Source: a virus
Taxonomy: Duplodnaviria; Heunggongvirae; Uroviricota; Caudoviricetes
IMG/VR virus record: IMGVR_UViG_3300008267_000033
Span: 1 to 64,000 of that record
Reading direction: 5' to 3' (one strand)
DNA length: 64,000 bases
Below the pieces are notes generated by a model. It saw nothing but the letters and a program-made list of their open reading frames with translations, was not told where the DNA came from and did no database searches. Below are positions 15,085 to 34,359 of the stretch, one piece after another; the stretch's first letter is position 1, and each line of letters opens with the position of its first letter. A program made the position numbers and the translations under genes.

Positions 15085-16389
15085 TCAGTCTTGTTTGCTC
15101 TCATCATAGTAGGCATGTGTGCCCCAGGGTGGCACAATGGTTGTTGTGCCATGCAAGATCCAAGTGGTGTCACAGTATTCGGCGTCACCCCAAGAACCAA
15201 ACGGGTAGCCGTCTGTGAACACGATGAGTCGGCGTGGTGTGATCTCTTGATCTTTCAAGTAGGTAAAGATACAATCAAAATCAGTGCCACCACCACCAGA
15301 CACTTCGTAGTCAATCATGCTGTCAAGATTGTCCGAGTCATATTGCGCAGGGTTATAGCACTGGGTATCAAACGTTGCCACATGTATCTTGTAACTTGGG
15401 AACGAGTCCATGATGCCTTGGATCTCACTCAAAAAGTCTCTCAGCATGTCCTGGCTGATGGAACCAGACGCATCCAACATCACAGCAACATCAATCATTT
15501 CATCGGGCTTTTGTCCCGGCATCACTGCATCCATGTGCCAACCTTTGCGGCTGGCCCGCATCCATGTGTAGTCGGCTTTGATAGTGCTTTCCAGATTCAT
15601 GCGCAAAATTTCACGCCAGTTCAACTGTGGCTCAGTAAGTTGTTGGATCAGTCGCTTGACACCTGCGGGCAAGTTGCCAGCACCGTCCACTGTGGCCGCT
15701 GCCGCCAGCATGGCTTCTTTGATCTCGTCCTTGATGGCTTGTTTGTCCTCTGCGCTCAGTTTAGGACGGCCCTTGCCTTCGCCTTCTTGATCTCCGTCGC
15801 CATCACCTTCACCGTCCAAGTGCTCGTCGATCATTTGATCCAGCAATGAACCAATGTCAATCTTTTCTGCTTTTTCGTACAACTGATCGTATACTTCTTC
15901 CGAACTCAAGCCGTCATACTTGCGATCATACAAGCAAGGTACACTAGTGATCTTCTCACCCACATTGTGTTTCACCAAGTCACCATTCACACAATAGTCA
16001 TTGGCAATGTTCCACAACTGCGGGTCTCTGTCTCCGCGACGTCCAAAGTGATCATACACACAATGCAACACCTCATGTCCAAACAAGAATTCAATTTCTT
16101 TGGGACGCAACATCTCAATAAAGCGGGTATTGTAGTAAAAATTTCTGCCGTCTGTTGCGGCTGTGGCACACCATTCATCAGCATTGATCAGTTTGAGCCG
16201 TGTTGCAAGGTTACCAAAGAAACTAGCCTTCAACAGCAAACCCACACGAGCCGAAACCAACTTTTCACGCACCACGCGATCCAGTTTTGCATCTGTGGCG
16301 CCGATCAAGTTGGCAAATTTCTTTGCGTCATCTTTGGTGGCAGTGGTGCCTGCTGTGGCATGTAGTACGTCAGGGTTGAAATAGTGCAT
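15085..16389 (-). CDS. VWA-domain protein with N-terminal zincin-like (HEVLH) metallopeptidase domain (CobT-like partner of the CobS-like ATPase)
   Basis: HEVLHCVYDHF HExxH motif; VMLDASGSISQDML VWA MIDAS motif; start moved to the second Met (16389) because the TATAAT box sits 2 nt from the first ATG and AAGGAA precedes the second. Confidence 0.6.
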   Translation of the reverse strand: MHYFNPDVLHATAGTTATKDDAKKFANLIGATDAKLDRVVREKLVSARVGLLLKASFFGNLATRLKLINADEWCATAATDGRNFYYNTRFIEMLRPKEIEFLFGHEVLHCVYDHFGRRGDRDPQLWNIANDYCVNGDLVKHNVGEKITSVPCLYDRKYDGLSSEEVYDQLYEKAEKIDIGSLLDQMIDEHLDGEGDGDGDQEGEGKGRPKLSAEDKQAIKDEIKEAMLAAAATVDGAGNLPAGVKRLIQQLTEPQLNWREILRMNLESTIKADYTWMRASRKGWHMDAVMPGQKPDEMIDVAVMLDASGSISQDMLRDFLSEIQGIMDSFPSYKIHVATFDTQCYNPAQYDSDNLDSMIDYEVSGGGGTDFDCIFTYLKDQEITPRRLIVFTDGYPFGSWGDAEYCDTTWILHGTTTIVPPWGTHAYYDESKQD

Positions 16390-16412
16390 GTGATTCCTTG
16401 TTTGTTTCATGT

Positions 16413-16461: not shown

Positions 16462-17010
16462 CTAGTCTGACGCCGAATGAATTTCTATCAAAGGAATATG
16501 GTCGGGATGCTGTATGACGTAATCAATTATTTTAGCAATACTATCTAGTGCTAACCATTTTTCATGTCCAGGTTTGCCATCATTTAGTCCGCCGGCAATT
16601 ATATGTGAAGTTTTAATTCCTTTTTTGTTGTTCAATTGCAGGCTCCGGTCTCGCAATGCTCGCTTTTGTATACTGTATCCACCATAAATGCTATCTATGC
16701 GACCATCATCAACTCCCATCCACTCAGCAGTGCTTCCGATGTTTATAATATGCCCTTTGATATTGTGCTTGGACCAAACATGCCATGTGGTTTCAAGCAA
16801 TGCTAATTGTCCACCATTGCATATAAAACTGCTGTTGATAAAAACATTGTAGTTTTTAATCTTGTTTTGAAAAAAGTCTTCACTGCCCGAATCCCAAAAT
16901 CTCAAATCGTATCCAGTTGCCCTGCTAGCAAATTCTGCCTGAGGAAATTTTCTTTTGATAGCCGAAGCCACAGTAGTATGATCGGGGTTTCCTGTGCAAA
17001 GTATATTCAT
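16462..17010 (-). CDS. hypothetical protein
   Basis: ORF track. Confidence 0.3.
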   Translation of the reverse strand: MNILCTGNPDHTTVASAIKRKFPQAEFASRATGYDLRFWDSGSEDFFQNKIKNYNVFINSSFICNGGQLALLETTWHVWSKHNIKGHIINIGSTAEWMGVDDGRIDSIYGGYSIQKRALRDRSLQLNNKKGIKTSHIIAGGLNDGKPGHEKWLALDSIAKIIDYVIQHPDHIPLIEIHSASD

Positions 17011-18149
17011 GATATAATTTTACTCCATTCGGGGGTTAACGCCTTGAAATCTGTACCTCGTATGTGATTCAATGCAGATATATTTTTCCAAAAATGATCA
17101 TGGGATTGGTCGCTTGTTTTCAAGGATTGCACCAACAGGAGTAATTGGTTGTAGTTTTGAAATTTGCGTTGTAGCGTGGCATGACCCGACTCTGACAGAT
17201 AATCAAGTTCAAAATCACCAACTGCTTTTTGAAAAATTAAATTAGTTGGGTCGCCATATCTGTTTGAAGAAAAATTTTCATTCCACCAATCCCATACTTC
17301 GTTTAAATAAAAAAAGTTAAGATAACTCCATGTACAATTTATATTGAACATATGGTTGTGTGGCATATTAGCATAGAACCAATCCAAGGTAGAGTTGACT
17401 TTGTTCCAGTCTGCTCCAGTGCGTTGGTAATCAAATCGAGCACCAACATCATCAATGCTGAAATACAGTTCAATCAACTGACATTTCTCCCATAATTGTA
17501 AAATTTCATCCGACACTGTTTGCGTAGCATTGGTATTATAAAATACTCTAACATCTGACAGTCCTTTTACTTGTTGAATTTTTTGCAAAAGTCTAACATG
17601 ATTCTCAGACAACAGTGGTTCGCCACCACCATGAAAATGCACATGCTTGATATTTTCCAAAAGAGCCTGGTCAGTTATTTCTAATTGTTCATTTTTTTTG
17701 TATTGAAACGGTGCAATATCATATGTGGGGTGTAATTTTTGATAATCAGGAATCCATTGTGAACTGTTTTGAGGTCCGCATATGACACATTTCAAATTGC
17801 ATAAATTTCCAACACTGTAGTCAATACCTGTTGGCCCAGACAACTCAATGTTGATGTCTTTATGGTATTCTTCGTATAGTTTTTTTGATCCTTGTCGTCG
17901 GCTTTCTATCCCAGCATCTTCGGCACTGTAGCAGGCCTGGCATCCTGGTATAAAGGCATCAGTTTCAACACATTTTTTTAGCTCTAAGTGTTCGGGGCTA
18001 TTCCACACATCAGTCAAATTGAACTCTGATGATGTTTTGATATATCCATTGTAAAAAGAACAAGGATTGTAACCCAGTTCACCGTTGTGAGACCATATGG
18101 CAAGATTTTTATAAATTTCGTAGCAAAAGTATTTTTTATTTTTCATCAC
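17007..18149 (-). CDS. radical SAM protein
   Basis: CNLKCVIC = CxxxCxxC radical SAM cluster motif; 380 aa. Confidence 0.55.
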   Translation of the reverse strand: MMKNKKYFCYEIYKNLAIWSHNGELGYNPCSFYNGYIKTSSEFNLTDVWNSPEHLELKKCVETDAFIPGCQACYSAEDAGIESRRQGSKKLYEEYHKDINIELSGPTGIDYSVGNLCNLKCVICGPQNSSQWIPDYQKLHPTYDIAPFQYKKNEQLEITDQALLENIKHVHFHGGGEPLLSENHVRLLQKIQQVKGLSDVRVFYNTNATQTVSDEILQLWEKCQLIELYFSIDDVGARFDYQRTGADWNKVNSTLDWFYANMPHNHMFNINCTWSYLNFFYLNEVWDWWNENFSSNRYGDPTNLIFQKAVGDFELDYLSESGHATLQRKFQNYNQLLLLVQSLKTSDQSHDHFWKNISALNHIRGTDFKALTPEWSKIIS

Positions 18150-18451: not shown

Positions 18452-18885
18452 TATGCAGTGCCTAAATGTGCCAGTTCAAAGAACATAAGTTCCTTGTCCG
18501 AAGCCACGTAGATTCTATAGTTGCGGTACTCGGTGCTGTAGGCCCACTGTAGATTTAGATCATCTGACTGATGGCTTGAAGGTACTGTATCATTCAGTTG
18601 TTCAGCAATCTCGTTCTGTGTCTTGACATCTGTACTCCAGCCATATGTGCGGTTGAACCAACGTCGGGCTCGATCAAACTCCAGCACACCACTGCTGTAA
18701 TCACCCTTGGGGAATTCAATGGTGTACCGATAGATCTTGCTCCAACTGTTGCGACCATTTAGTTTGACAATTTCGTATTTCATATTAAAAGGGTGGCACA
18801 GCCACAGCCCTGTAAGACTGCACCACCCACCCCCATCAGCTGGCTTGCAAAATGTACTTGCCGTAACGAGCATGGAACTCGTCAA
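18451..18885 (-). CDS. hypothetical protein
   Basis: ORF track. Confidence 0.3.
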   Translation of the reverse strand: MTSSMLVTASTFCKPADGGGWCSLTGLWLCHPFNMKYEIVKLNGRNSWSKIYRYTIEFPKGDYSSGVLEFDRARRWFNRTYGWSTDVKTQNEIAEQLNDTVPSSHQSDDLNLQWAYSTEYRNYRIYVASDKELMFFELAHLGTA

Positions 18886-19927
18886 ACACCTTGATCTTGG
18901 TAGGCTGCATCGGCAACATATAAGTTGTCAGTGCAATACGAGCACCCAACACCACCAGTTCAGTCTCAAAGTTCTTCATCATATATGCCAAAAAGTTATT
19001 GCTCATTTCATGGAACTCTTTGTCTGACACTTTCTTTTGCTCAATGGCGTCTTTGAGTTCGTAGCACATGCTGATGACCAAACTGTACATGGCCGACACT
19101 TCTTTCACATTCAAGTCTGTTACCTTGCCACTCAAGATGTCCGAGGGCTGGGGCATGCGTCCGGACACTTTGCGGTGTGCTTTGAATTTCACAGCAAGGC
19201 CCTCGCCCACAGTACCTGCAATCAGGTTCATTTCTGTGTCCTCGTCACATTCATCCGCCAACAGCTCACTCACAAAACTCCAAGAGCGCGGTGTTGCAAA
19301 TGCACGTGAACTGGACTTGGCATCAAAGTCGTACAAGTCCTGCTTGGCAAAACTCAAGTAACCCACCACGTCTTTGTGGATGTTGTGATTCACAGCCCAC
19401 TCTTGCCATGATGCAAAGTCTACACGCATTTCCTGGTGAACAAAACGATTTGCCAGCGGAGTCGGCATGCGGAAGGTAACACCTTTGTCTGATTCACGAT
19501 TACCTGCTGCCACCATCACCACATTGTCAGGCAGTTTATACTTGCCAATGCGTCGATTCAAAATCAACTGATATGCGGCACTCTGCACTGACGCTGGAGC
19601 TGAGTTCATCTCGTCCAAAAACAGCACCACCACAGGGTACTGGCTGGCAGTTTCTTCATCGGGCATTTCCACAGGGGGAGCCCAATCCATCTTGCCAATG
19701 TCTTTGTTGTAAAACGGAATACCACGAATGTCTGTGGGTTCCATCTGTCCCAGGCGCAAGTCAATCATCAAGCCACCAAGTTCTTCTGTGATGCCAGCCA
19801 CAACTTCGCTCTTGCCGATGCCGGGAGGACCCCACAAAAACATAGGACGCTTTTTCTTAAAAGCATGCATGATGGATTTACGAACTTGGGCACTGGTTAC
19901 TGTACGTGCATCTGATACTGCTGACAT
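18836..19927 (-). CDS. cobS: AAA+ ATPase, CobS/MoxR-like
   Basis: Walker A FLWGPPGIGKSEV; Walker B VVVLFLDEMN; about 360 aa; neighboured by the VWA/CobT-like gene as in phage cobS/cobT pairs. Confidence 0.65.
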   Translation of the reverse strand: MSAVSDARTVTSAQVRKSIMHAFKKKRPMFLWGPPGIGKSEVVAGITEELGGLMIDLRLGQMEPTDIRGIPFYNKDIGKMDWAPPVEMPDEETASQYPVVVLFLDEMNSAPASVQSAAYQLILNRRIGKYKLPDNVVMVAAGNRESDKGVTFRMPTPLANRFVHQEMRVDFASWQEWAVNHNIHKDVVGYLSFAKQDLYDFDAKSSSRAFATPRSWSFVSELLADECDEDTEMNLIAGTVGEGLAVKFKAHRKVSGRMPQPSDILSGKVTDLNVKEVSAMYSLVISMCYELKDAIEQKKVSDKEFHEMSNNFLAYMMKNFETELVVLGARIALTTYMLPMQPTKIKVFDEFHARYGKYILQAS

Positions 19928-21065: not shown

Positions 21066-21680
21066 TTAATCCACATGGTGTTCGGTCTTGAAATTGCCGT
21101 TTTTGAATCCAATCTCTCCACCTTCTGCTTGGATGCGCCGGTACACATCATCCAACAATATGGGTGCAAAGTCAGTCTGTTCCACGCACACACAATGGTA
21201 TCGCGGATCGATCTCAGTGCCGTACAATACTTCACCGGTCTTGGCGTTGACACCACGGGCCCGTTTCACACGACTGGCGTGCAAGTGTCCGTGAATGTTG
21301 GTACCAAAGCGACCCAACGAGGCCTCATGCACAGGGATATGACTCAAGATCATTCCGTTCATCACATGGTATGCCCGCAACTCACGAAAGTATTCGCGAT
21401 ACTCCACATCCGGAAAGATATCATGGTTGCCGCGAATCAATACCTTGTCCCCGTTCAAGCGAGCCAAAGTTTTCAACGCACGGCGGTTGATAACCACGTC
21501 ACCCAAATGGTACACTTTGTCAGTGGGCCGGACTCGTGCGTTCCACTTTGCAACCATGTCCTCATCCATCTCCTCGGGAGTGTCGTAAGGACGCAACTTG
21601 GTCACGCCATCGTTGCGAGTGAACTTGCACACACCCATGTGTCCAAAATGTGTGTCACTTACCAAAAACGTTGCTGGCAT
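21066..21680 (-). CDS. calcineurin-like metallophosphoesterase
   Basis: N-terminal FLVSDTHFGH, the DxH(x)nGDxxDR-type metallophosphatase motif; own consensus promoter and SD. Confidence 0.65.
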   Translation of the reverse strand: MPATFLVSDTHFGHMGVCKFTRNDGVTKLRPYDTPEEMDEDMVAKWNARVRPTDKVYHLGDVVINRRALKTLARLNGDKVLIRGNHDIFPDVEYREYFRELRAYHVMNGMILSHIPVHEASLGRFGTNIHGHLHASRVKRARGVNAKTGEVLYGTEIDPRYHCVCVEQTDFAPILLDDVYRRIQAEGGEIGFKNGNFKTEHHVD

Positions 21681-21705: not shown

Positions 21706-21734
21706 ATTATAACAGATTGGGCATTTCTGGTCAA
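21706..21734 (-). promoter_or_regulatory. sigma70-type promoter (CTTGACC-17-TATAAT) for the metallophosphoesterase gene
   Basis: -35 at 21729-34, -10 at 21706-11, AGGAG SD, ATG 21678-80. Confidence 0.6.
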
Positions 21735-21737: not shown

Positions 21738-22208
21738 CTACTTGGGTACTACTTCCAACCAAGTGTGATCGCCCATGTACTTAACCTGTGCCTGGTACTC
21801 GTAATCCTCAGGTGCACTGCTTGACCAGTCGTCAGGACCATGCGGTGTCAACAAGGTATGTTGCCGGCGCCGGTCCCAGGCCAACCAATACACATTGCCC
21901 ATCACAGGACTGAATTGGTACACTGCCGCATGCACTAGATCTGTAACGGCTAGTCTGCGTCGAATGTCATCTGCTTGCTTTTGCAACACACTCACCAGTT
22001 CCATGATTCGATCATACTCTTGCTGGGCATACATCCTGGCATGATTGATCATGAGATCTTTTTGCTGTGTGACTGGTACTAGATCAAATGCAGGACCCAG
22101 TGTACTGGTGGCGTAGGGTGTGACATTACGGTTGAAGAAGTGCACCAAGGTATTGCCGGTGCTGACATCAAAGCTATCGCGACCCTTGGCGCTATTGCTT
22201 TCATCCAC
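21738..22208 (-). CDS. hypothetical protein (GTG start per ORF track)
   Basis: ORF track. Confidence 0.3.
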   Translation of the reverse strand: MDESNSAKGRDSFDVSTGNTLVHFFNRNVTPYATSTLGPAFDLVPVTQQKDLMINHARMYAQQEYDRIMELVSVLQKQADDIRRRLAVTDLVHAAVYQFSPVMGNVYWLAWDRRRQHTLLTPHGPDDWSSSAPEDYEYQAQVKYMGDHTWLEVVPK

Positions 22209-22210: not shown

Positions 22211-22477
22211 TTACAGGGGCTGTTGTTTGTTGCGTCTGCGTGGCTGAACTTCAGTCTCACGATAGATGTAGTCTCGGCCAATTTTACCTGCTTCAATTTC
22301 CAACATAGCTGTGACGCCGGCACTGTGTGCAAATTTAAGTGTGATTTTAGGCATGTCACCGCGACTCAGTTCCCGCATGCGGCGTGCGCCAGCCAGGACC
22401 AAATCGTATCGGTTACCGATCATGGCCACTGCCTGTTCTGAGTTGAGTCCTGCTGTTCTGTCTGCTGGGTGCTTCAT
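22211..22477 (-). CDS. rpoZ: RNA polymerase omega-subunit (RpoZ)-like protein (89 aa)
   Basis: [36 protein letters not shown] aligns with E. coli RpoZ [35 protein letters not shown]; start set to ATG 22475-22477, preceded by GGAAGA. Confidence 0.5.
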   Translation of the reverse strand: [88 protein letters not shown]

Positions 22478-22764
22478 GGTTCTTCCTTGGTTGATAATCC
22501 GTTTGAATGCTTGGCTGTTTGTTGTTCCAAGTCTTGGAACAGGCGCTTTTCTTGTTGGGTCAGTCTGTCCTTGTGTGTCTTGCGTGGATTGCCACACATG
22601 AAACATCGTGGTTGACCACAGTCCATGGCATGACGCTTGGCAAACTTATGCGGCTGACCAATGTTTGAACCAGCGGCTCGGGCAATTTTAACTTGTCTAG
22701 ACACAGCCACATCAGTTTTGTGTCGGCGTCGGCTGTTGACAAATCGGGCTAGGTCGTTGCTCAT
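22474..22764 (-). CDS. small basic protein with CxxxxCxxC motif
   Basis: ORF track; CGQPRCFMCGNPRKTH; ATGA overlap with neighbouring genes. Confidence 0.3.
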   Translation of the reverse strand: MSNDLARFVNSRRRHKTDVAVSRQVKIARAAGSNIGQPHKFAKRHAMDCGQPRCFMCGNPRKTHKDRLTQQEKRLFQDLEQQTAKHSNGLSTKEEP

Positions 22765-22925
22765 CCGCCGCGTCCCACTGTGCGTTGCACAGGTCTACCT
22801 GCAATGGCGGGAGTGCCAGATCGCTTGGTTTTGCCTGATTTGATTTTGGCATCAGGATGAGCAGCCGCATGTTTTTTGGCCAATGCGTCTCGAAGTGTAT
22901 CAGTCAATTTTTTAGGTTTAGTCAT
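22761..22925 (-). CDS. small Lys/Arg-rich basic protein (54 aa)
   Basis: Start set to ATG 22923-22925 (MTKPKKLTD...), downstream of the sigma70-like promoter at 22951-22979; the track ORF starts at TTG inside the -35 box. Confidence 0.35.
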   Translation of the reverse strand: MTKPKKLTDTLRDALAKKHAAAHPDAKIKSGKTKRSGTPAIAGRPVQRTVGRGG

Positions 22926-22950
22926 ACTGTTATTTACGTCCTTGGTGTAC

Positions 22951-22979
22951 AGTATAACAAAGAATCCATTGAGTGTCAA
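22951..22979 (-). promoter_or_regulatory. sigma70-type promoter (TTGACA-17-TATACT) for the small basic protein / RpoZ-like operon
   Basis: -35 at 22974-79, -10 at 22951-56, immediately downstream of the terminator hairpin at 22987-23008. Confidence 0.5.
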
Positions 22980-22982: not shown

Positions 22983-23008
22983 AAAAGGGCCGACGGCCCT
23001 TTTGGTTT
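22983..23008. terminator. rho-independent terminator (bidirectional)
   Basis: GAAAAGGGCC gac GGCCCTTTTGGTTT. Confidence 0.5.
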
Positions 23009-25538: not shown

Positions 25539-26770
25539 TTTACGTTCCAGATTCAGTAGGTGAGGTATTATACAGCCCACTAGGGCATTACACAGTGGGC
25601 GATAATTGGTTCTACAGCAACAGAGATGCACTAGAGGCCAGTCACCGTACCGGCCAACCTGTGGCTTGGCATTACTATGATGATGTTTGGGCTACTGCAC
25701 ATGCCGCTGGACACTGGCGCAATCAAAATCTACGCGAACTATATTATGCCAGAGCAAGACAAATACGTGAGCAGTATGACTATGTGGCGGTGTTGTTCAG
25801 TGGCGGCTGGGACAGTCGCAACATAATTGAAAGTTTTGCCGCACAAGGACTGCGCATAGATGATATCATTGTGTTGACCACACCAGAACTAGAAAACACA
25901 ACAGACTTCAACAATCAAGACCCCACAAACTGGTACGGTGAGATCATGTATCATGCAGTGCCCTATGCTGAACGTTATGCTGCCGCACATCCGGGCACAG
26001 GAGTGATCAAGATAGAGTGGCTGGATCGTGTGGTAAATGCTTATCGTAATCCTGAGCAAGTGTTCAAGGACAGTCGCCCCAAGCCTGGTGTGTTCTTTGG
26101 CCGTTGGCTCAGCGTAGCAACAAATGCTCAGCTAGAAAAACGAATAGGCAACCGTCGTGCCACATTACTAACTGGGCTAGATAAGCCTTGTGTGATGCGC
26201 ACTGGAGACTCTTACCGAGGATTTTTTCCCGAAGGCCTAATGCGTGTGTACACCTATTGCACAAAAAGCAACGGGTTCCCAGACAATGTGATATGGGAAC
26301 CATTTTATTGGACGCCCAACATGCCTGAACTGGCCATACGTGGTTGGTATGAACTGATAGATTTGTGTCGTCGAGATGCTGTGGTAGCACATGCTCATGA
26401 TTCCACATTGAGCATGGAACAACGTGCCACAGCCAAAATGAGTCGCTATGTACAAGATGCCATGCGCAGACATTTGTACCCAGGGTTTGATGCCGGTGCC
26501 TGGCAAGCAGACAAACAAAACGACTATGGTTTTTTTATGCAATTCGAGTTGCCAATATTGAATTTGCTGGCGCAAAAACAAGTACCGGTTAGAGAAGTGT
26601 TGGGTGAAGTTTTGGCAGAAACTGCTCAACGCATTGGTGAGAGTTCTGTTGCCATCGGCGACCGAACCAACAGCGGTCTGGTGCCTTGGGTTGACATGCC
26701 TGGTGGGCATACTGTGTTAGATTACAAAACCTTTACCAGTTGTGTGATCAATTTAGATGGCCGGCCCTGA
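25481..26770 (+). CDS. PP-loop ATP pyrophosphatase (SGGxDS), asparagine-synthetase / QueC-like
   Basis: VAVLFSGGWDSRNI PP-loop motif; 3' end overlaps tRNA-Arg(TCG) by about 13 nt; true start may be a later Met (MIYVPDS). Confidence 0.4.
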   Translation: MGTWLSSRCGSCAGVLAVMIYVPDSVGEVLYSPLGHYTVGDNWFYSNRDALEASHRTGQPVAWHYYDDVWATAHAAGHWRNQNLRELYYARARQIREQYDYVAVLFSGGWDSRNIIESFAAQGLRIDDIIVLTTPELENTTDFNNQDPTNWYGEIMYHAVPYAERYAAAHPGTGVIKIEWLDRVVNAYRNPEQVFKDSRPKPGVFFGRWLSVATNAQLEKRIGNRRATLLTGLDKPCVMRTGDSYRGFFPEGLMRVYTYCTKSNGFPDNVIWEPFYWTPNMPELAIRGWYELIDLCRRDAVVAHAHDSTLSMEQRATAKMSRYVQDAMRRHLYPGFDAGAWQADKQNDYGFFMQFELPILNLLAQKQVPVREVLGEVLAETAQRIGESSVAIGDRTNSGLVPWVDMPGGHTVLDYKTFTSCVINLDGRP

Positions 26771-26832
26771 CGGAATCGAACCGCCACCGCTTGTTTCGAA
26801 GACAAGCATGATATCCATTTCACCAAGGGCCG
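26758..26832 (-). tRNA. tRNA-Arg (anticodon TCG)
   Basis: Minus-strand cloverleaf: T-arm GGCGGTTCGATTCCGTC, anticodon loop CTTCGAA, acceptor CGGCCCT/AGGGCCG, encoded CCA. Confidence 0.7.
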
Positions 26833-26850
26833 GTGTTTGCTAAGTAACGT

Positions 26851-27552
26851 ATGACTGAACTATTATATACCCTGATTGCAACACATATCACCATTGTTGC
26901 TGTCACACTATTCCTGCACAGAAGCCAAGCACACAGAAGCGTACAGTTTCACCCTGTAGTGTCACACTTCTTTAGATTTTGGCTGTGGCTCACAACTGGC
27001 ATGGTCACAAAACAATGGGTAGCGGTACATCGCAAGCATCACAGATTCAGCGACGAGCCGGGTGATCCACACTCACCGCATGTGTATGGAATCAAACAAG
27101 TTTTCTTCAAAGGAGCAGTGCTATATCATGCGGCATCAAAAGATAAAGTCATGGTTGATACATATGGTGTTGGTACTCCTGCTGATTGGATTGAGCACAA
27201 CCTATACAGTGCTCACTCCAGACTTGGCATTGGCATTCTCTTTTTGTTCAACATCATCGTCTTTGGTTGGGTTGGCGCCATAATCTGGGGCATACAAATG
27301 CTATGGATCCCATTATGGGCCGCTGGTGTTGTGAATGGCATTGGACACTGGTGGGGGTATCGCAATGGTCAAACAAAAGATCAAAGCCAAAACATTGTGC
27401 CTTGGGGCATTGTGATCGGCGGCGAAGAACTACACAACAATCATCACCTTAATCCTGCCGGTGCTCGACTCAGCAGACACTGGTGGGAGTTTGATATTGG
27501 ATGGATGTACATCCGATTGCTCAGTGCCTTGCAGTTGGCCACTGTGAAATAA
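26851..27552 (+). CDS. membrane fatty-acid desaturase / hydroxylase-like protein (His-box)
   Basis: Three His boxes HRKHH, HWWGYRNGQ, HNNHH with hydrophobic segments between. Confidence 0.5.
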   Translation: MTELLYTLIATHITIVAVTLFLHRSQAHRSVQFHPVVSHFFRFWLWLTTGMVTKQWVAVHRKHHRFSDEPGDPHSPHVYGIKQVFFKGAVLYHAASKDKVMVDTYGVGTPADWIEHNLYSAHSRLGIGILFLFNIIVFGWVGAIIWGIQMLWIPLWAAGVVNGIGHWWGYRNGQTKDQSQNIVPWGIVIGGEELHNNHHLNPAGARLSRHWWEFDIGWMYIRLLSALQLATVK

Positions 27553-27553
27553 C

Positions 27554-27627
27554 TGGTGCTCTCACCGAGAATTGAACTCAGGATTCAGTCTTACCAAGAC
27601 TGTGTTATACCACTTAACTACAAGAGC
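27554..27627 (-). tRNA. tRNA-Thr (anticodon GGT)
   Basis: Anticodon stem CAGTC/GACTG with loop TTGGTAA; T-loop TTCAATT; encoded CCA. Confidence 0.6.
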
Positions 27628-27633
27628 AAAAGA

Positions 27634-27707
27634 TGGAGCAGGATACCAGAATCGAACTGGTGACTGGACGTTGGCAACGTTCTATTTTCCCCCTAAACTA
27701 ATCCTGC
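27634..27707 (-). tRNA. tRNA-Gly (anticodon GCC, tentative)
   Basis: T-arm ACCAGTTCGATTCTGGT; acceptor GCAGGAT/ATCCTGC; anticodon loop TTGCCAA with one A-C mismatch in the stem; CCA. Confidence 0.55.
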
Positions 27708-27713
27708 GATATT

Positions 27714-28196
27714 TTAGGCCGCCTGCAGACCTTTGAATCTGTCGGCAGCATAACTTGCGGCAAATGCATGTGGTTTCACAAAAGGAATCACGTTGCATGT
27801 GCCTTTGATGTAGCCTATGGCTTGGCTTAGGACACAACTTGAACCGTGCATTTCGTCAGGGTTGATGTCCAAGTGAACTTCGACATCACGTCCTTCCAAC
27901 ACTTCCGCCAGTTTCAAGTACAACTCTGATACTTTATAAACTTCAGTCATGAGTCGCATGGCAGGTTTGGACACCTTTTGATCCCACACACGTTCACGAT
28001 GCACTTCACCAAAGATCTTGCAACCGTTGTTGCCGTTGATGTGAACCACAACAGCCAACACATAGTCAGCATGCCATGCACCGTCGATGCGCAGGCGTTC
28101 TGAATCACAGCCAAGATAGATCTTGGTTTCCGGAGACTGAGCCCGGATAAATTCTGCCACTTGTTCTAGATCAAGTTTTTTCATATGCACTTTCAA
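27714..28196 (-). CDS. DUF458/YkuK-like RNase H-fold protein (tentative), embedded in the tRNA array
   Basis: Family recalled from memory only (YLGCDS..LAVVVHI..LDINPD..KPHAFAASYAADR); weak. Confidence 0.3.
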   Translation of the reverse strand: MKVHMKKLDLEQVAEFIRAQSPETKIYLGCDSERLRIDGAWHADYVLAVVVHINGNNGCKIFGEVHRERVWDQKVSKPAMRLMTEVYKVSELYLKLAEVLEGRDVEVHLDINPDEMHGSSCVLSQAIGYIKGTCNVIPFVKPHAFAASYAADRFKGLQAA

Positions 28197-28210
28197 GATT
28201 ATTTATTGTT

Positions 28211-28290
28211 GACTGGTACCCCCACTCTGATTCGAACAGAGAACATATACTCCCTTTTGAGGAGAGTGACTTTACCAATTTGTCCATGGG
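28211..28290 (-). tRNA. tRNA, 80 nt, anticodon probably CAA (Leu-like but without a long variable arm)
   Basis: Acceptor GCCCCCA/TGGGGGT; T-arm CTCTGTTCGAATCAGAG; anticodon stem CTCTC/GGGAG with loop CTCAAAA; CCA. Confidence 0.45.
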
Positions 28291-28295
28291 GGCAG

Positions 28296-28372
28296 GTGTG
28301 GTGGATGTTAGTGGGATCGAACCACTGACCCACAGCATGTCGAGCTGTTGCACTACCGCTGTGCTAAACATC
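28296..28372 (-). tRNA. tRNA-Val (anticodon GAC, tentative)
   Basis: GGATGTTTAGCACAGCGGTAGTGC D-arm; anticodon stem ACAGC/GCTGT with loop TCGACAT (C33); GGTTCGATCC; CCA. Confidence 0.55.
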
Positions 28373-28377
28373 CTGAA

Positions 28378-28454
28378 TTGGTGCCCCAGAGGAGACTCGA
28401 ACTCCTAAAATACGGCTTCTAAGACCGGCATGTATACCAATTCCATCACCGGGG
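28378..28454 (-). tRNA. tRNA, anticodon probably TAG (Leu-like, type-I length)
   Basis: Acceptor GCCCCGG/CTGGGGC; T-arm GGAGTTCGAGTCTCC; anticodon loop CTTAGAA; CCA. Confidence 0.45.
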
Positions 28455-28747
28455 CATTAAATACAATATGATTCCATACGAACTACGAGATACCACACAA
28501 GTACTGTATGCTAAGTTCAGCTGTCAGCCCTACGTGCCTGCTAGTTACTGGACCACCTCTAGAGAATTTGTGTTGAATCCACTTTACCAACACACTGTGA
28601 CACAGTATGTGGCGGATCCTGTGTTTGAAAAACCTCAGCATGAATTTGTGCTGGATACCACATTCTTGGTGCCTCCTCCAGGTTCCGACCCTGGTTCTCC
28701 GGATTTTCAATCCGATGCTATGACCACATCAGCTAAAGAGGCAAATT

Positions 28748-28822
28748 TGGTACCTTGTGACGGGATCGAACCGCCGACATTCGCCGTGTAAAGGCGCTAC
28801 TCTACCGCTGAGTTAACAAGGC
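28748..28822 (-). tRNA. tRNA-Val (anticodon TAC)
   Basis: GCCTTGTTAACTCAGCGGTAGAGT; anticodon loop TTTACAC; GGTTCGATCC; CCA. Confidence 0.6.
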
Positions 28823-29012
28823 TTAGGAAATTTGTTGCAATGCGTCTCGACGCATCAGCAGTTGGCGTGTTTCGTTGACTCTATGCACAGAGATGTACTC
28901 GATGCCTTCGAATATTCTTACATGTCTGATATCATCGCAAATGAGTATTTCTCTTGTGATCTTGTTTTCAAATGTAATTTTGTTCATAATCATCTCCTGT
29001 TACAGTACTTAT

Positions 29013-29104
29013 TTGGCGGAAGACGGAGGAGTCGAACCCCATCCCTGTTAAGAGAACCTGGTTTTCAAGGCCAGTCGCAGGACCAACCCCGCTGCATCAT
29101 CTTC
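29013..29104 (-). tRNA. tRNA-Ser (anticodon TGA), type II
   Basis: 92 nt with long variable arm; anticodon stem CTGGC with loop CTTGAAA; T-arm GGGGTTCGACTCC; GCCA end. Confidence 0.65.
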
Positions 29105-29113
29105 CTGTATTTT

Positions 29114-29191
29114 TTGGAGCAACGGGTGAGATTTGAACTCACGGTTTTTGGGATTTGCAATCCCATGCGTTGGGCCACTCCGCCACCGTTG
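29114..29191 (-). tRNA. tRNA-Cys (anticodon GCA)
   Basis: Acceptor GCAACGG/CCGTTGC; anticodon stem TGGGA/TCCCA with loop TTGCAAA; GTTCAAATC; TCCA end. Confidence 0.65.
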
Positions 29192-29197
29192 CATTGC

Positions 29198-29271
29198 ATG
29201 GTCTCCGATGCAAGAATCGAACTTGCGCTCCTTGGTCCCAAACCAAGAGTGATACCATTTCACCAATCGGA
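29198..29271 (-). tRNA. tRNA-Pro (anticodon TGG)
   Basis: Anticodon stem CTTGG/CCAAG with loop TTTGGGA; T-arm GCAAGTTCGATTCTTGC; CCA. Confidence 0.65.
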
Positions 29272-29330
29272 GTAAAAAATTAGACCACAAGTGTAAGGGA
29301 CTTACGCCGGCGGGCTTTGCCTAGCGGGTA

Positions 29331-29537
29331 TTACTTGCGATCCAAATGAGGTTCTCGAGTCTTGTCAACTTCAACATAACGTACAGACTGCATACTCTCT
29401 GGCAAGTTCCAGTTGAGATTTTTCCAGTATCGATGCAACAAGTTGTTGACCAACAGCACTAGACCTACCAGCACTATGATGCCACAGCTCAGTAAAATTA
29501 CACATACCAAAAAGGTTGCGGCACTCTCAATTGTCAT
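29331..29537 (-). CDS. small membrane protein
   Basis: ORF track; hydrophobic core VCVILLSCGIIVLVGLVLLV. Confidence 0.3.
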   Translation of the reverse strand: MTIESAATFLVCVILLSCGIIVLVGLVLLVNNLLHRYWKNLNWNLPESMQSVRYVEVDKTREPHLDRK

Positions 29538-29557
29538 TGTTGTTTCTTTCAGTTGAA

Positions 29558-29631
29558 TGGAGCGGCGTGCGAGAATCGAACTCGCGACACGAACTTGGAA
29601 GGATCGGGTAATACCATTTTACGAACGCCGC
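29558..29631 (-). tRNA. tRNA-Gly (anticodon TCC)
   Basis: Acceptor GCGGCGT/ACGCCGC; anticodon loop CTTCCAA; T-arm GCGAGTTCGATTCTCGC; CCA. Confidence 0.6.
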
Positions 29632-29677
29632 TTATACATTAATTATACAACAAGCCACCGGGTTTGTCTATGTTGTT

Positions 29678-29753
29678 TGGCAGGGGAGATGAGATTCGAA
29701 CTCATGATCACGATTTCAAAGACCGTTGCCTTAGGCCACTAGGCGACACCCCA
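29678..29753 (-). tRNA. tRNA-Gln (anticodon TTG)
   Basis: Architecture parallels E. coli tRNA-Gln (TGGGGTG..GCCTAGTGGCCTAAGGC..); anticodon stem ACGGT/ATCGT with loop CTTTGAA; unpaired 1:72 as in bacterial tRNA-Gln; CCA. Confidence 0.55.
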
Positions 29754-29761
29754 ACAGGAAC

Positions 29762-29835
29762 TGGTAGCCAGTACAAGAATTGAACTTGTGATAATCGCTT
29801 ATCAAGCGACCGTTATACCATTTAACTAACCGGCT
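29762..29835 (-). tRNA. tRNA-Ile (anticodon GAT)
   Basis: Anticodon stem GTCGC/GCGAT with loop TTGATAA; T-loop TTCAATT; CCA. Confidence 0.65.
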
Positions 29836-29841
29836 GAAATT

Positions 29842-29917
29842 TGGTGGTAATAGTTGGACTCGAACCAACGGTGGGTTGCGTATGAAGCAACTGCATTAGC
29901 CACTATGCTATATTACC
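29842..29917 (-). tRNA. tRNA-Met (anticodon CAT), elongator or Ile2 type
   Basis: Acceptor GGTAATA/TATTACC; anticodon stem GTTGC/GCAAC with loop TTCATAC; GGTTCGAGTCC; CCA. Confidence 0.65.
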
Positions 29918-29992
29918 ATATAGAAACACACTTGATATAGGAGATCACTCTCTCACGGATGAACCCGAGGTTGGTCAAATATGTTTTTATAT
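29918..29992. repeat. inter-tRNA spacer bounded by the leader/trailer inverted repeats ATATAGAAACACAC (29918-31) and ATATGTTTTTATAT (29979-92)
   Basis: The motifs abut the 5' end of tRNA-Met and the 3' CCA of tRNA-Lys and are mutually complementary. Confidence 0.55.
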
Positions 29993-30066
29993 GGTAGGAG
30001 CACAGGGAATCGAACCCTGATTAACTGGTTAAAAGCCAGCTACTTTGGCCGTTAAGTTATGCTCCC
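29992..30066 (-). tRNA. tRNA-Lys (anticodon TTT)
   Basis: Anticodon stem GCTGG/CCAGT with loop CTTTTAA; T-arm CAGGGTTCGATTCCCTG; CCA. Confidence 0.65.
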
Positions 30067-30071
30067 GTACA

Positions 30072-30147
30072 TGGTCCCTGCGGTCAGATTCGAACTGACG
30101 ACCAGCGGATTAAGAGTCCGTTGCGCTACCAACTGCGCCACACAGGG
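30072..30147 (-). tRNA. tRNA-Lys (anticodon CTT, tentative)
   Basis: D-arm GCGCAGTTGGTAGCGC; anticodon loop CTCTTAA; T-arm GTCAGTTCGAATCTGAC; CCA. Confidence 0.5.
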
Positions 30148-30251
30148 TCAGTCGTAATTTTTTGATTTTACGTGCCAACCCTAGACCAATACGGGATCTA
30201 GAGCGACACTACGGTTTACCTCGTTTCATGCCATCTCCTTGTTAAAAACGT

Positions 30252-30280
30252 ATTATACAATAAACGGAATCTATCGTCAA
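30252..30280 (-). promoter_or_regulatory. sigma70 consensus promoter (TTGACG-17-TATAAT) reading into the tRNA block 30147 to 29558
   Basis: -35 revcomp of cgtcaa at 30275-80, -10 revcomp of attata at 30252-57; about 100-nt leader before the tRNA at 30147. Confidence 0.6.
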
Positions 30281-30864
30281 CCTTTTGTTCGGCGTTGAAA
30301 GCCGAACCATGCCTTGATGGATTTGCTGATGGGCAAATCTTTATCAAACCCAATTGTCAAACTTATTCTGTGACCAGACAATTCAGGATTAGGATGTACG
30401 CTATGTACGCACGATGCATCAAATAACACTGGTGACACCAATTCAAATTCGGTAATTAGTTCACGTTCTTGATCCATTGGAAATCCTGTATATAATATAC
30501 CATTTGTATCACTAGTAAGTTTTCCAGCACCGTCAGGAACTTGCCAAAGTTTTGTCATTGAGCCTTGACAATTTCTAACTGGCCATAAGATTCTTACATA
30601 CGGGTCTACACCGTCGTTGTCTTTGTGCATGCTTACAATATCATTATCAGCGCAAACTATGGTGGCCAATCTTTCTGGAATCAAATGCCGACTGTTTAAA
30701 AATTCTGCTAGCAACGGACAATGACTCAGCATATGATGTATTGATTGATCATTGAAATAATTTTTACTCAACATTGCATCAGTGTGGTCAACAATATACT
30801 TGTAGACTTCTTCACTTATGTCCTGATGATTTTCTACATCTAAGAATTTGTATGCTAACTTCAT
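30277..30864 (-). CDS. cupin / 2OG-Fe(II)-oxygenase-like protein, paralog 1
   Basis: HKDNDG (HxD) and VHSVHP His motifs; shares PxxNCxxxxTxxW with 35702..36316; start moved to ATG 30862-30864 so the gene does not overlap the tRNA at 30878. Confidence 0.35.
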   Translation of the reverse strand: MKLAYKFLDVENHQDISEEVYKYIVDHTDAMLSKNYFNDQSIHHMLSHCPLLAEFLNSRHLIPERLATIVCADNDIVSMHKDNDGVDPYVRILWPVRNCQGSMTKLWQVPDGAGKLTSDTNGILYTGFPMDQERELITEFELVSPVLFDASCVHSVHPNPELSGHRISLTIGFDKDLPISKSIKAWFGFQRRTKG

Positions 30865-30877
30865 GCTATTACTTATT

Positions 30878-30951
30878 TGGTGCCCCACGACAGAATCGAA
30901 CTGCCATCACAGGATTACAAAACCAGTGTAATGCCATTATACTAGTAGGGC
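30878..30951 (-). tRNA. tRNA, anticodon uncertain (possibly TGT, Thr)
   Basis: Acceptor GCCCTAC/GTGGGGC with one G-U; T-arm GGCAGTTCGATTCTGTC; CCA; anticodon stem pairs poorly (loop TTTGTAA). Confidence 0.4.
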
Positions 30952-30958
30952 GGCGGTA

Positions 30959-31141
30959 TTAAGACTTTGCTATGATCTTTTGAATTGTTTTCTTATAGTC
31001 CAAGGCACGTTGAATCTTTGCACGATTTTTTGGTCTAGCAGTTTCCAACAGGGCTGTTAGCTGTGCCACATTCAGTGGACCAAGCCTGGGCCGGCCACTG
31101 TGATGTTTCATTGGATCGTTGTGTGTGTTATATGCTGACAT
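30959..31141 (-). CDS. hypothetical small basic protein
   Basis: ORF track. Confidence 0.25.
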   Translation of the reverse strand: MSAYNTHNDPMKHHSGRPRLGPLNVAQLTALLETARPKNRAKIQRALDYKKTIQKIIAKS

Positions 31142-31157
31142 AGTTTTCCTTTTTGTT

Positions 31158-31232
31158 TGGCTCCTCAGACTGGGATCGAACCAATGACCGAACGGTTAAC
31201 AGCCGTTTGCTCTACCTCTGAGCTACTGAGGA
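31158..31232 (-). tRNA. tRNA-Asn (anticodon GTT)
   Basis: TCCTCAGTAGCTCAGAGGTAGAGC closely parallels E. coli tRNA-Asn; anticodon stem AACGG/CCGTT with loop CTGTTAA; GGTTCGATCC; CCA. Confidence 0.7.
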
Positions 31233-31240
31233 ATATACTT

Positions 31241-31330
31241 TGGCGGAACGTTAGGGAGTCGAACCCTATGAGCAAGTTTCCTCACCCTACGCATTAGCAG
31301 TGCGTTGCCTTACCGTCCGGCCCACGTTCC
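31241..31330 (-). tRNA. tRNA-Ser (anticodon GCT), type II
   Basis: 90 nt; acceptor GGAACGT/ACGTTCC; D-arm GGGCCGGACGGTAAGGC; anticodon loop CTGCTAA; long variable arm; GGGTTCGACTCCC; CCA. Confidence 0.65.
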
Positions 31331-31352
31331 TTGCGAATACTTATACTGACAT

Positions 31353-31427
31353 TGGTGGAGGGTAAGGGAATCGAACCCTTAACTCATGCTTGCAAAGCAC
31401 ATGTGTTCCCGTTAGCACCAACCCCCC
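31353..31427 (-). tRNA. tRNA-Ala (anticodon TGC)
   Basis: Acceptor GGGGGGT/ACCCTCC with G3-U70 wobble (Ala identity element); anticodon loop TTTGCAA; AAGGGTTCGATTCCCTT; CCA. Confidence 0.65.
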
Positions 31428-31434
31428 AAATACA

Positions 31435-31508
31435 TGGCATCCCGGGAGGGACTCGAACCCCCACAAACGGTTTTGGAGACCGCTATGCTGCCATTACACC
31501 ACCGAGAC
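31435..31508 (-). tRNA. tRNA-Trp (anticodon CCA)
   Basis: Anticodon stem GCGGT/ACCGT with loop CTCCAAA; GGGGGTTCGAGTCCCTC; CCA. Confidence 0.65.
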
Positions 31509-31535
31509 AAATTAAACACACTGTTGCCAATGTGT

Positions 31536-31614
31536 GTATTAAAACAGATTGTATGCTTAGGGAATAATATTTCTGTCAAGCGACCAGCAACGGATACGCA
31601 ATCTGTTTTAATAC
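31536..31614. repeat. perfect 16-bp inverted repeat GTATTAAAACAGATTG / CAATCTGTTTTAATAC enclosing a 47-nt loop, upstream of tRNA-Trp
   Basis: Arms at 31536-51 and 31599-614. Confidence 0.5.
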
Positions 31615-31712
31615 GCTCGGATTTTTTTATGTACAAGAACACAAGCCATCCCCGAGGCCGCCCGTTTATTTTTTTGAGTGCTTGTAGGACCGCGTTTCCG
31701 TTTGCACTAAAT

Positions 31713-31745
31713 AAAAAAACCCCGGAGTGTTTAGTTCCGGGGTTC
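31713..31745. terminator. strong bidirectional rho-independent terminator
   Basis: AAAAAAACCCCGGA gtgtttagt TCCGGGGTTCTTGTT; on the minus strand the stem is followed by T7. Confidence 0.65.
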
Positions 31746-31977
31746 TTGTTAGATATACGAATATAGTCTATCAGAACCCCGGGTCTCCTGGAATACTGTT
31801 GAATGTGCCATTGGCCAACAGCCAGGTTGTTGCCTGGAAGGACATGGGTTTTGTCATTGAACAGAATTGTTGTTTCATCATAGTTCCTATTATAGTTTAT
31901 TTATTATTTGTTGTCAACCACAGAGCAAAATTATTTGCAGTGCTCTGCATTACAAAACTCATTCTATTGCTAGTATA

Positions 31978-32376
31978 TCAAACTTGCTGTATGAATGCAC
32001 TCCAAAGAACAGTGCCATCTTCACTGACAATTGGAACAGCCCAGACGTTCTCAAAATCACATGTGTTGATACTGGCTTGGGTATCAAAGTGAATAAGACT
32101 CCAAAACTTTCGCATGGAAAAATCAGCCTCTAAATTTTGAAATTTGTCAACAAAGGCCTGTGCAGCTTCTTCGCTGATGGAATAATAAATTGATACGTCA
32201 GGCCATGTGTCTGCGTTCACCACGCACAAATTCAATATCAAATTTTCATTTATGCACTCATTCCAGAAATTGACAATAGGATCGAAATGATCAACTACAT
32301 GTTCGCTTCCTTTTGAGCTTATGTTAAGGTCAGACGCCTCTTCCCTAGCAGTCATTATTATTGTAATTTCATACAT
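31978..32376 (-). CDS. hypothetical acidic protein
   Basis: Start set to ATG 32374-32376 (MYEITII...), preceded by AAGGAAA; the upstream part of the track ORF would overlap tRNA-fMet. Confidence 0.35.
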   Translation of the reverse strand: MYEITIIMTAREEASDLNISSKGSEHVVDHFDPIVNFWNECINENLILNLCVVNADTWPDVSIYYSISEEAAQAFVDKFQNLEADFSMRKFWSLIHFDTQASINTCDFENVWAVPIVSEDGTVLWSAFIQQV

Positions 32377-32390
32377 ATATTTCCTTTTAT

Positions 32391-32465
32391 TTGGTTGCAG
32401 AGGACGGATTCGCACCGCCGGTCCCCGGGTTATGAGCCCGATGAGATACTACTTCTCCACTCTGC
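32391..32465 (-). tRNA. initiator tRNA-fMet (anticodon CAT)
   Basis: CGCAGAGTGGAG...TCGGGCTCATAACCCGG...AACCA: C1xA72 mismatch, three G-C pairs closing the anticodon stem, close parallel to E. coli tRNAfMet; T-loop TGCGAAT. Confidence 0.7.
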
Positions 32466-32670
32466 GCTATGTTTATTTATATTGAATGAAGCACTGCCCG
32501 GTGTTTAAAGGTACGTATAGCAATATGCCGATACCATCCTTCCAGGAACATGACTTCGACTGTGACTAGCAGTCCACGCGGCTCTCGCCCGGTCAGCGGC
32601 TCTGGATCAATAAGTCCCTGGCAGTTGGGCCCATTGTCAATGAGTTTTTAACACGCTTCAATCAATATCG
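32466..32670 (-). ncRNA. 205-nt GC-rich non-coding segment between tRNA-His and tRNA-fMet; candidate small structured RNA
   Basis: CCAGG..CCTGG enclosing a GCGGCTCT direct repeat; no ORF. Confidence 0.25.
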
Positions 32671-32747
32671 TGGGGTGCATGATGGGATTCGAACCCACGC
32701 ATATCGGAATCACAATCCGAGGTCTTGACCGCTTGACGACACGCACC
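32671..32747 (-). tRNA. tRNA-His (anticodon GTG)
   Basis: Extra 5' G-1 opposite discriminator C73; anticodon stem TCGGA/TCCGA with loop TTGTGAT; GTGGGTTCGAATCCCAT; CCA. Confidence 0.7.
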
Positions 32748-32826
32748 ATATAGAAACACACTAGTCGGAAACGACTTAGAGACCTACTTGCCCACAGTCA
32801 CGAAGGCTTCTAATGTGTTTTTACAT
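32748..32826. repeat. inter-tRNA spacer bounded by ATATAGAAACACAC (32748-61) and AATGTGTTTTTACAT (32812-26); the spacer contains an AGTCG gaaa CGACT hairpin
   Basis: Abuts the tRNA-His 5' end and the tRNA-Arg(ACG) 3' end. Confidence 0.55.
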
Positions 32827-32902
32827 GGCGCGACCGGAGAGATTCGAACTCCCGACCCCTTGGTTCGTAGCCAAGTACTCTATCCAACTGAGCTACGGTC
32901 GC
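32826..32902 (-). tRNA. tRNA-Arg (anticodon ACG)
   Basis: GCGACCGTAGCTCAGTTGGATAGAGT; anticodon stem CTTGG/CCAAG with loop CTACGAA; GGGAGTTCGAATCTCTC; perfect 7-bp acceptor; CCA. Confidence 0.75.
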
Positions 32903-33518: not shown

Positions 33519-33604
33519 TGGTGGAGACGGATGGATTCGAACCACCGCGCTTTTTACGGGCCAGATTTACAGTCTGGTGCAATCAACCACTCTGCCACGT
33601 CTCC
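33519..33604 (-). tRNA. tRNA-Tyr (anticodon GTA), type II
   Basis: 86 nt; acceptor GGAGACG/CGTCTCC; anticodon stem CCAGA/TCTGG with loop CTGTAAA; long variable arm; GGTTCGAATCC; CCA. Confidence 0.7.
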
Positions 33605-33614
33605 AAAACGTACT

Positions 33615-34353: not shown

Positions 34354-34359
34354 GCTTGA

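Follow-up and report, generated by a model that had tools for sequence, protein, structure and literature searches.

Can a phage supply its own version of a subunit of the bacterial RNA polymerase (RNAP), and what would it gain from doing so? This question is raised by a 64,000-nt stretch of viral DNA (positions 1 to 64,000 of the IMG/VR record IMGVR_UViG_3300008267_000033, Caudoviricetes; "the window" hereafter), in which a short open reading frame (ORF) had been proposed, before any database search, to resemble RpoZ, the omega subunit of RNAP. Omega is the least understood subunit of the enzyme, with proposed roles as a chaperone of beta', in site 1 for guanosine tetraphosphate (ppGpp), and in sigma competition. 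Below we present the evidence that the ORF encodes an omega, describe how it differs from cellular omegas and how widely it is found among phages, and consider what it may do during infection.

Identity and conservation of the phage omega

The gene and the layout of its product are as follows.

22211..22477, minus strand: omega (RpoZ-like) gene, third gene of its operon; 267 nt, i.e., 88 aa plus stop; isoelectric point (pI) of 10.2
Residues 1-7: N-terminal extension
Residues 8-12: TAGLN
Residues 13-66: helical core
Residues 67-88: basic tail

The coordinates are those of the original prediction, which gave no strand and counted 89 aa (the size is 88 aa plus stop). The ORF has no frameshifts or internal stops. 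A longer reading of 131 aa (22211..22606) was rejected as an artefact because its extra N-terminus sits in another frame of the upstream gene (called cys96 here), because the relatives L002 and L003 lack this stretch, and because the ATG at 22477 has a ribosome-binding site (AAGGAAG) and overlaps the upstream stop (ATGA). JGI gene calls for omega (128-131 aa) are over-extended into the same other frame of cys96.

The protein matches the Pfam family PF01192 with 35 bits (cut-off: 26; E-value: 1.5e-8), residues 19-66 covering 47 of the 53 profile positions, and the rpoZ equivalog model TIGR00690 with 33.2 bits (cut-off: 23.6); it did not reach the subfamily model NF001579 (20.2 versus 58). Using phmmer against PDB chains, we retrieved 22 omega chains with E-values of at most 1 (20 of them below 0.01), the best being 9gdo_E (3.6e-7), with Escherichia coli omega at 2e-6; the sole non-omega match was an XRE-family regulator (0.72). 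Residues 12-78 of the query were aligned to residues 5-72 of E. coli omega with one single-residue gap. The original prediction had claimed an alignment with RpoZ over most of the length; the alignments it quoted were reproduced, and the similarity extends well beyond a 17-aa segment to essentially the whole omega core.

The predicted structure agrees with the sequence comparison. An AlphaFold model of the phage omega, built with 54 homologues, has a mean predicted local distance difference test score (pLDDT) of 77 (86-89 across residues 21-70) and contains three helices (13-20, 23-38 and 53-62). When the model was searched against the PDB using Foldseek, the top 50 matches were all omega chains; the best one, 8tom_K from E. 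coli RNAP, has a root-mean-square deviation (rmsd) of 1.1 Å over 58 columns with 40% identity, and the omega chains of E. coli RNAP structures as a whole gave rmsds of 1.1-1.5 Å over 54-59 residues. The core motifs GNR[FY]xLVL..ARRxR and A.xEIxxG are invariant or nearly so in 54 phage sequences and are shared with E. coli omega, and the residues that are invariant in the phage clade while being most conserved in cellular omegas are N22, R23, Y24, L26, L28, R32, R33, R35, A57, E60, I61 and G64. Since curated cut-offs are passed, the alignment reaches residues 5-72 of the E. coli protein, the model superposes on known omegas and the core residues are kept, we conclude that the 88-aa ORF is a full-length RpoZ/omega homologue over its structured part.

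Both ends of the protein are different from those of cellular omegas. We fetched 76 cellular omegas (including those of Alteromonas, Psychrosphaera, Comamonadaceae and Thiobacillaceae), in a scan that used a required pattern and whose sampling is biased thereby; all 36 that were printed read MARVTVED or MARITV[ED]D, either at the start of the protein or after an over-extended ORF start. The window omega has seven extra residues followed by T8-A9-G10-L11-N12, which is aligned to the cellular MARVT positions. To see how general this is, we relied on the best 80 loci of omega relatives in IMG/VR, which contain 50 distinct omegas and to which the synteny and end-sequence counts for IMG/VR refer: all 50 read x-x-G-L-[S/T/N/D] at the MAR[VI]T positions, with glycine in place of Arg3 in each, and none has MAR. 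The C-terminal tail, D-Y-[IL]-x-[RK]-E-x-[ED]-[VI]-x-P-R-R-R, is conserved as well and is net basic in 50 of 50, whereas the tail of E. coli omega is acidic (pI of 4.5 for the whole protein, versus 10.2 for the phage omega) and betaproteobacterial omegas stop at about residue 66 without a tail. E36, R39-G40-D41, Y70, P79 and R82 are invariant within the phage clade and, by inspection of the alignment with E. coli omega, are taken to be clade-specific. In proteobacteria, the MAR motif predicts (p)ppGpp binding of RNAP at site 1 (PMC6912228), which lies in a cleft between beta' and omega (PMC6416229); by this motif the window protein would not belong to the omegas competent for site 1.

Relatives of the phage omega are numerous in metagenomes. 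A word-indexed search found 198 related metagenome proteins (the 120 listed having at least 64% identity), and PF01192 is present in each of those 120, many of which are automatically named "RNA polymerase omega subunit" by JGI. An exhaustive search of cluster representatives gave 142 clusters at E-values of at most 1e-3, and a pattern scan found 506 IMG/VR viral contigs (up to 364 kb) that encode an omega relative; homologues in related phages, which the original prediction had suggested looking for, are thus plentiful among uncultured viruses, and tblastn found none in cultured phages. The synteny of the locus is kept down to about 50% identity. According to the Nei-Gojobori method, the ratio of non-synonymous to synonymous substitution rates (dN/dS) between the window omega and four close relatives is 0.055-0.085, and among those four it is 0.046-0.131 (dS of 0.7-1.1), i.e., the phage omega is under strong purifying selection.

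In a scan of 185,579 species, each represented by one genome, phage-type omegas (41-57% identity) turned up in only four contigs, all from metagenome-assembled genomes (MAGs): a single Haliscomenobacter MAG contributed two, and Lentimicrobiaceae and Polynucleobacter one each. One of the four (L096) has the full phage synteny and is probably mis-binned phage DNA; the two contigs binned in the Haliscomenobacter MAG look like jumbo-phage DNA. Genuine cellular omegas, within the pattern-biased sampling described above, are at most about 46% identical to the phage omega. Distant omega-like genes were also observed on phage-like contigs (L097, L099 and L256/L257), where cys96 is absent and some of the genes have MAR, so that viral omegas probably occur in more than one phage lineage.

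Operon structure and the cys96 gene

The omega gene lies in a four-gene operon, whose other elements, together with the flanking ones, are listed below in the direction of transcription.

22983..23003, minus strand: GC-rich hairpin with A-run and T-run flanks (AAAAGGGCC-GTC-GGCCCTTTT), read from the sequence
22951..22979, minus strand: sigma70-type operon promoter, TTGACA-17-(TG)TTATACT, extended -10, 11 of 12 consensus matches
22761..22925, minus strand: gene 1, very basic protein of 54 aa (pI 11.5), whose stop overlaps the start of gene 2 (ATGA)
22474..22764, minus strand: gene 2 (cys96), basic protein of 96 aa (pI 10.5), matching phrog_4499
21738..22208, minus strand: gene 4, DUF2452 protein of 156 aa, with a GTG start 2 nt past the omega stop
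21706..21734, minus strand: next sigma70-type promoter, TTGACC-17-TATAAT, extended -10, right after the DUF2452 stop
21066..21680, minus strand: calcineurin-like metallophosphoesterase of 204 aa (phrog_547)

The sigma70-driven operon with two small basic proteins that had been described from the sequence was recovered here, including its promoter (read from 22979 to 22951); its fourth gene, encoding the DUF2452 protein, had been omitted. ATGA overlaps join genes 1 and 2 as well as genes 2 and 3 (54-aa protein, cys96 and omega). The hairpin is likely a bidirectional intrinsic terminator, which would end the upstream rubrerythrin transcript and insulate the omega operon; a consensus terminator scan missed it because its A and T runs pair, which shortens the T tail. 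None of the omega, 54-aa and DUF2452 proteins has a family in PHROGs. Conservation of the 54-aa gene is poor (it could be detected in 14 of 93 loci), and DUF2452 follows omega in 31 of 93.

The second promoter drives the metallophosphoesterase gene, which lies downstream of omega in 65 of the 80 IMG/VR loci with varying genes in between (in L008, these encode an AdoHcy hydrolase, a dual-specificity phosphatase and an AAA_33 kinase). The metallophosphoesterase is a positional associate of omega. NCBIfam gave it no specific identity (a sub-threshold match to PdeM only); that it hydrolyses a nucleotide signal, which would fit an effect of the phage omega on ppGpp control, is pure speculation.

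Promoters of this kind are common in the window. We counted 15 near-consensus sigma70-type promoters (TTGAC-N17-TA.A.T), most of which have a TG-extended -10. All 15 lie on the minus (coding) strand; 0.5 would be expected in shuffled sequences. Judging from promoter type, the omega operon would be expressed early. Two copies of the promoter together with its 5' leader (…GGCATACAAAGCAAAAAGGAGC…) are present, at 20694 and 21013, ahead of two small ORFs.

Sigma70-type promoters, minus strand: 13815, 16441, 19996, 20694, 21013, 21734, 22979, 30280, 31917, 34217, 34506, 34772, 37117, 41700 and 58752

The gene most closely tied to omega is cys96. In 72 of the 80 best IMG/VR omega loci, the two genes share a strand and the cys96 stop directly adjoins the start of omega; of the other eight loci, two or more are interrupted by a contig end. 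The cys96 family has 2501 metagenome relatives and dN/dS values of 0.07-0.21. His39, Cys49, Cys54, Cys57 and His64 are invariant and form a putative zinc site; within the motif DCGxPxCxxCGNPRKTHKD.LT.QEKR.FQ, the block starting at CGNPRK (CGNPRKTHKD.LT.QEKR.FQ) is invariant. Pfam gave a sub-threshold zinc-ribbon match only, a PDB profile search gave no match, and the AlphaFold model is of low confidence (pLDDT of 64.5), the best E-value of its fold search (3.5) being meaningless. Weak homologues of cys96 are found among hypothetical genes of phiKZ-like phages (PHIKZ238.1), with no omega nearby. Given their co-translation, cys96 and omega may be a functional pair.

The phage genome and possible effects on the host polymerase

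The window (GC content of 44.5%) is part of an uncultured jumbo phage, a distant relative of Xanthomonas phage XaC1, Pseudomonas phage PA5oct and Pectobacterium phage CBB. We base this on three observations: close relatives of the omega locus are found on large contigs, 110-364 kb long in IMG/VR and about 360 kb long at JGI; a pair of genes on the minus strand (15085-16410 and 18836-19927), encoding a MoxR-type AAA ATPase and a metallopeptidase/VWA protein (DUF2201), matches PHROGs with 325 and 360 bits; and a flap endonuclease shares 45-46% identity with its counterparts in XaC1, PA5oct and CBB. The phage setting assumed in the original prediction therefore stands. By megablast, 15 kb of the window had no match among 50,697 deposited phage genomes (INPHARED). 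Betaproteobacteria are suggested as host by a permuted (two-piece) transfer-messenger RNA (tmRNA) at 35381-35746 on the minus strand (RF01850 betaproteobacterial model, 138.6 bits versus 84; tag ANDEQFALAA), the tmRNA type being the sole hint. Among about 35 window proteins run through profile libraries, none matched an RNAP family. PA5oct lacks an RNAP gene, and rifampicin given before infection fully suppresses its progeny production (PMC7318152).

On balance, we think that the phage omega is functional and phage-adapted, and that it probably joins the RNAP of the host and alters how this enzyme is regulated. The host enzyme is a likely target because the promoters in the window are of sigma70 type, no RNAP-like protein was seen among the window proteins run through profile libraries, and PA5oct lacks an RNAP and is sensitive to rifampicin. 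In such a scenario, unmodified host RNAP would transcribe the omega gene from its sigma70 promoter, and the product would bind host beta' where omega normally sits, by exchange or as new enzyme is assembled, yielding an RNAP in which the viral omega takes the place of the host subunit or competes with it. The likeliest consequence would be RNAP regulation shifted in favour of the phage, which could take two forms: ppGpp (stringent-response) control at site 1 may, if the host RNAP uses that site, be lost or altered, or the basic tail or cys96 (an obvious candidate, being translationally coupled) may provide a new docking surface for phage factors. The mechanism is plausible because phages can be held back by the stringent response and have means to counter it (PMC13483052), and because the gene transfer agent of Rhodobacter (RcGTA) acts via omega. 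A stronger version, in which the phage omega replaces host omega, abolishes site 1, thereby frees phage transcription from the stringent response, and also tethers RNAP to phage DNA or factors via the tail and/or cys96, is possible but doubtful in our view; if true, it would mirror in nature the "omega-fusion recruitment" of bacterial two-hybrid systems, and host RNAP would be taken over in a way that forms a new class.

The phage omega may instead simply supplement that of the host, i.e., fold and stabilise beta', aid core assembly and keep active RNAP up through a long infection while leaving regulation unchanged. The conserved beta'-binding core would suit this, as would the description of omega as a beta' chaperone (PMC7598289), the up-regulation of host rpoZ and other RNAP genes in some phage infections, and the wealth of host-like auxiliary genes and tRNAs in the window. 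A plain copy, however, should keep host-type ends, and a level of identity that nowhere exceeds about 46% with cellular omegas indicates an old specialised lineage rather than a recent pick-up from a host; we consider supplementation unlikely and favour a change in regulation because the core has been kept while both ends were redesigned and then conserved across the clade. The same redesigned ends could serve an inhibitor or decoy, which would compete with host omega or bind a host factor interacting with omega, and would damp host transcription or shift sigma usage: an early-type sigma70 promoter suits an early take-over, and the novel basic tail, like the extension at the N-terminus, could obstruct sites nearby. 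Yet the phage promoters in this region are themselves of sigma70 type, so a crippled holoenzyme would hurt the phage, and the effect of rifampicin on PA5oct progeny means that a relative needs active host RNAP; that the core contacting beta' is strictly kept speaks for productive binding, though it is still compatible with inhibition. An inhibitory role thus appears quite unlikely.

Another partner for omega would be a multisubunit RNAP of the phage itself, with beta/beta'-like proteins encoded elsewhere in the genome of about 360 kb and omega helping them to fold or assemble. Many jumbo phages encode such enzymes (PMC7598289), the window covers just 64 kb of the genome, and the phiKZ-like phages with weak cys96 homologues are among those that have them. 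We regard this as improbable: characterised jumbo-phage RNAPs need no additional subunits, the alpha assembly platform being absent (PMC7598289), the nearest cultured relatives (the XaC1, PA5oct and CBB group) are of the RNAP-lacking type with PA5oct being rifampicin-sensitive, the phiKZ-like phages have no omega beside their cys96 homologues, and the phage omega retains residues that are characteristic of omegas binding cellular beta'. Help to a phage polymerase, which the original prediction had raised next to modulation of the host enzyme, thus found no support within the window, and modulation of host RNAP appears to be the best supported of its functional readings because the closest cultured relatives lack their own RNAP and PA5oct is rifampicin-sensitive. 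Finally, the gene could be a dead passenger, a decaying fragment of host DNA. For this there is only the general frequency with which jumbo phages capture host genes; with dN/dS of 0.05-0.13 and hundreds of contigs that keep the ORF intact, its synteny and its translational coupling, it is effectively refuted.

Several observations weigh against a regulatory role of the phage omega on host RNAP, or narrow it. The distant phage-like contigs L097, L099 and L256 carry omegas with intact MAR; MAR loss is therefore not universal among viral omegas, and the idea of altered ppGpp control is limited to the present clade. Site 2 for ppGpp, which is DksA-dependent, would stay untouched. With 64 kb seen of a genome of about 360 kb, a beta/beta'-like polymerase may be encoded elsewhere. 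As for the proposed partner, cys96 occurs without omega within 1.5 kb in 19 of the 80 best cys96 loci in IMG/VR, where other accessory genes follow it (e.g. one for a peroxiredoxin-like protein), and the adjacency of the two genes may go back to one ancestral insertion beside a backbone gene. We had considered cys96 and omega as an obligate pair and softened this view given these 19 loci: omega is nearly always behind cys96, and cys96 does not need omega.

Other genes in the window include an array of 30 tRNA genes for all 20 amino acids (26758-37080, minus strand), with which the tmRNA, a trans-translation RNA carried by the phage, is found, and accessory genes for ThyX, rubrerythrin, radical-SAM/B12 enzymes, a fatty-acid desaturase and a class IV aminotransferase. 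The label "HNH endonuclease" given by PHROGs to the VWA protein looks like a mis-annotation, given its Pfam domains. Large paralogous ORFs share motifs such as "ITEKTFKP…", and the two of them that were scanned (41755-42831 and 55162-56220) had no significant match in Pfam or PHROGs. There are also four radical-SAM proteins, of which the one at 37104-39158 has a sub-threshold B12-binding match and the one at 51307-53313 is radical-SAM-like by sequence, with no match in PHROGs, its only scan. Together, the paralogous ORFs and the radical-SAM set suggest an elaborate modification or biosynthesis cluster.

1482-4831, 41755-44410, 55162-56220 and 60153-61154: paralogous large ORFs
17007-18149, 37104-39158, 49755-50600 and 51307-53313: radical-SAM proteins

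Comparison with known systems

A literature search across 8 million full texts found no description of a phage-encoded omega. When deposited phages were searched with the phage omega by tblastn, the matches were limited to contaminating bacterial sequence or host DNA (E. coli and Salmonella rpoZ in "phage" records, and Acinetobacter assemblies) and two with E-values of 2-4, so that, at the sensitivity of this search, no cultured phage has an omega. The homology itself was already in the databases through automatic labels, where it went unremarked; what is new is a viral copy of an accessory subunit of the host RNAP. The conserved phage omega points to an undescribed viral route for re-tuning host RNAP, next to the known means by which phages redirect it (sigma factors, anti-sigmas, ADP-ribosylation and small inhibitors). 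The viral family also offers ready-made separation-of-function variants of omega and a testable link of infection to stringent control. There is a practical side for metagenomics too: stoichiometry analyses of metagenomes use rpoZ as a core marker for bacteria (PMC10134851), and these marker sets could be contaminated by the hundreds of viral contigs whose rpoZ homologues pipelines label as RNAP subunits.

Bacterial RpoZ, as represented by E. coli omega, belongs to the same family as the phage omega and has the same predicted three-helix core and hallmark residues. The two differ at their ends (an extension with T-x-G-L and a basic PRRR tail in the phage protein, versus MAR and a tail that is acidic in gamma- or absent in betaproteobacterial omegas) and in their context, which is of the gmk-rpoZ-spoT type in cells (PMC6416229) and a four-gene phage operon here. 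Neighbours encoding cys96, DUF2452 or the metallophosphoesterase were found at none of the 76 cellular omega loci, where gmk and spoT were not searched for.

Early phage products that join or bind host RNAP and redirect it are likewise known from T4 (the sigma factor gp55) and from a Thermus phage (gp39, which switches promoter specificity; PMC3950348). Both act on sigma or promoter recognition, whereas the phage omega would be an RNAP subunit itself. Virus-encoded components of multisubunit RNAPs, to which the phage omega may be likened, are also found in phiKZ, AR9 and large eukaryotic DNA viruses, the last of which encode Rpb6 along with a whole polymerase. While phiKZ and AR9 encode multisubunit RNAPs, omega here was found alone, in a clade whose cultured relatives use the host RNAP.

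RcGTA of Rhodobacter offers another parallel. This phage-derived element controls its genes through GafA, which contacts omega, so that omega can serve as a regulatory docking site (PMC9638019). In RcGTA, omega is that of the host and GafA is the regulator of the element, whereas here the element brings omega itself, and the candidate partner, cys96, is unlike anything characterised.

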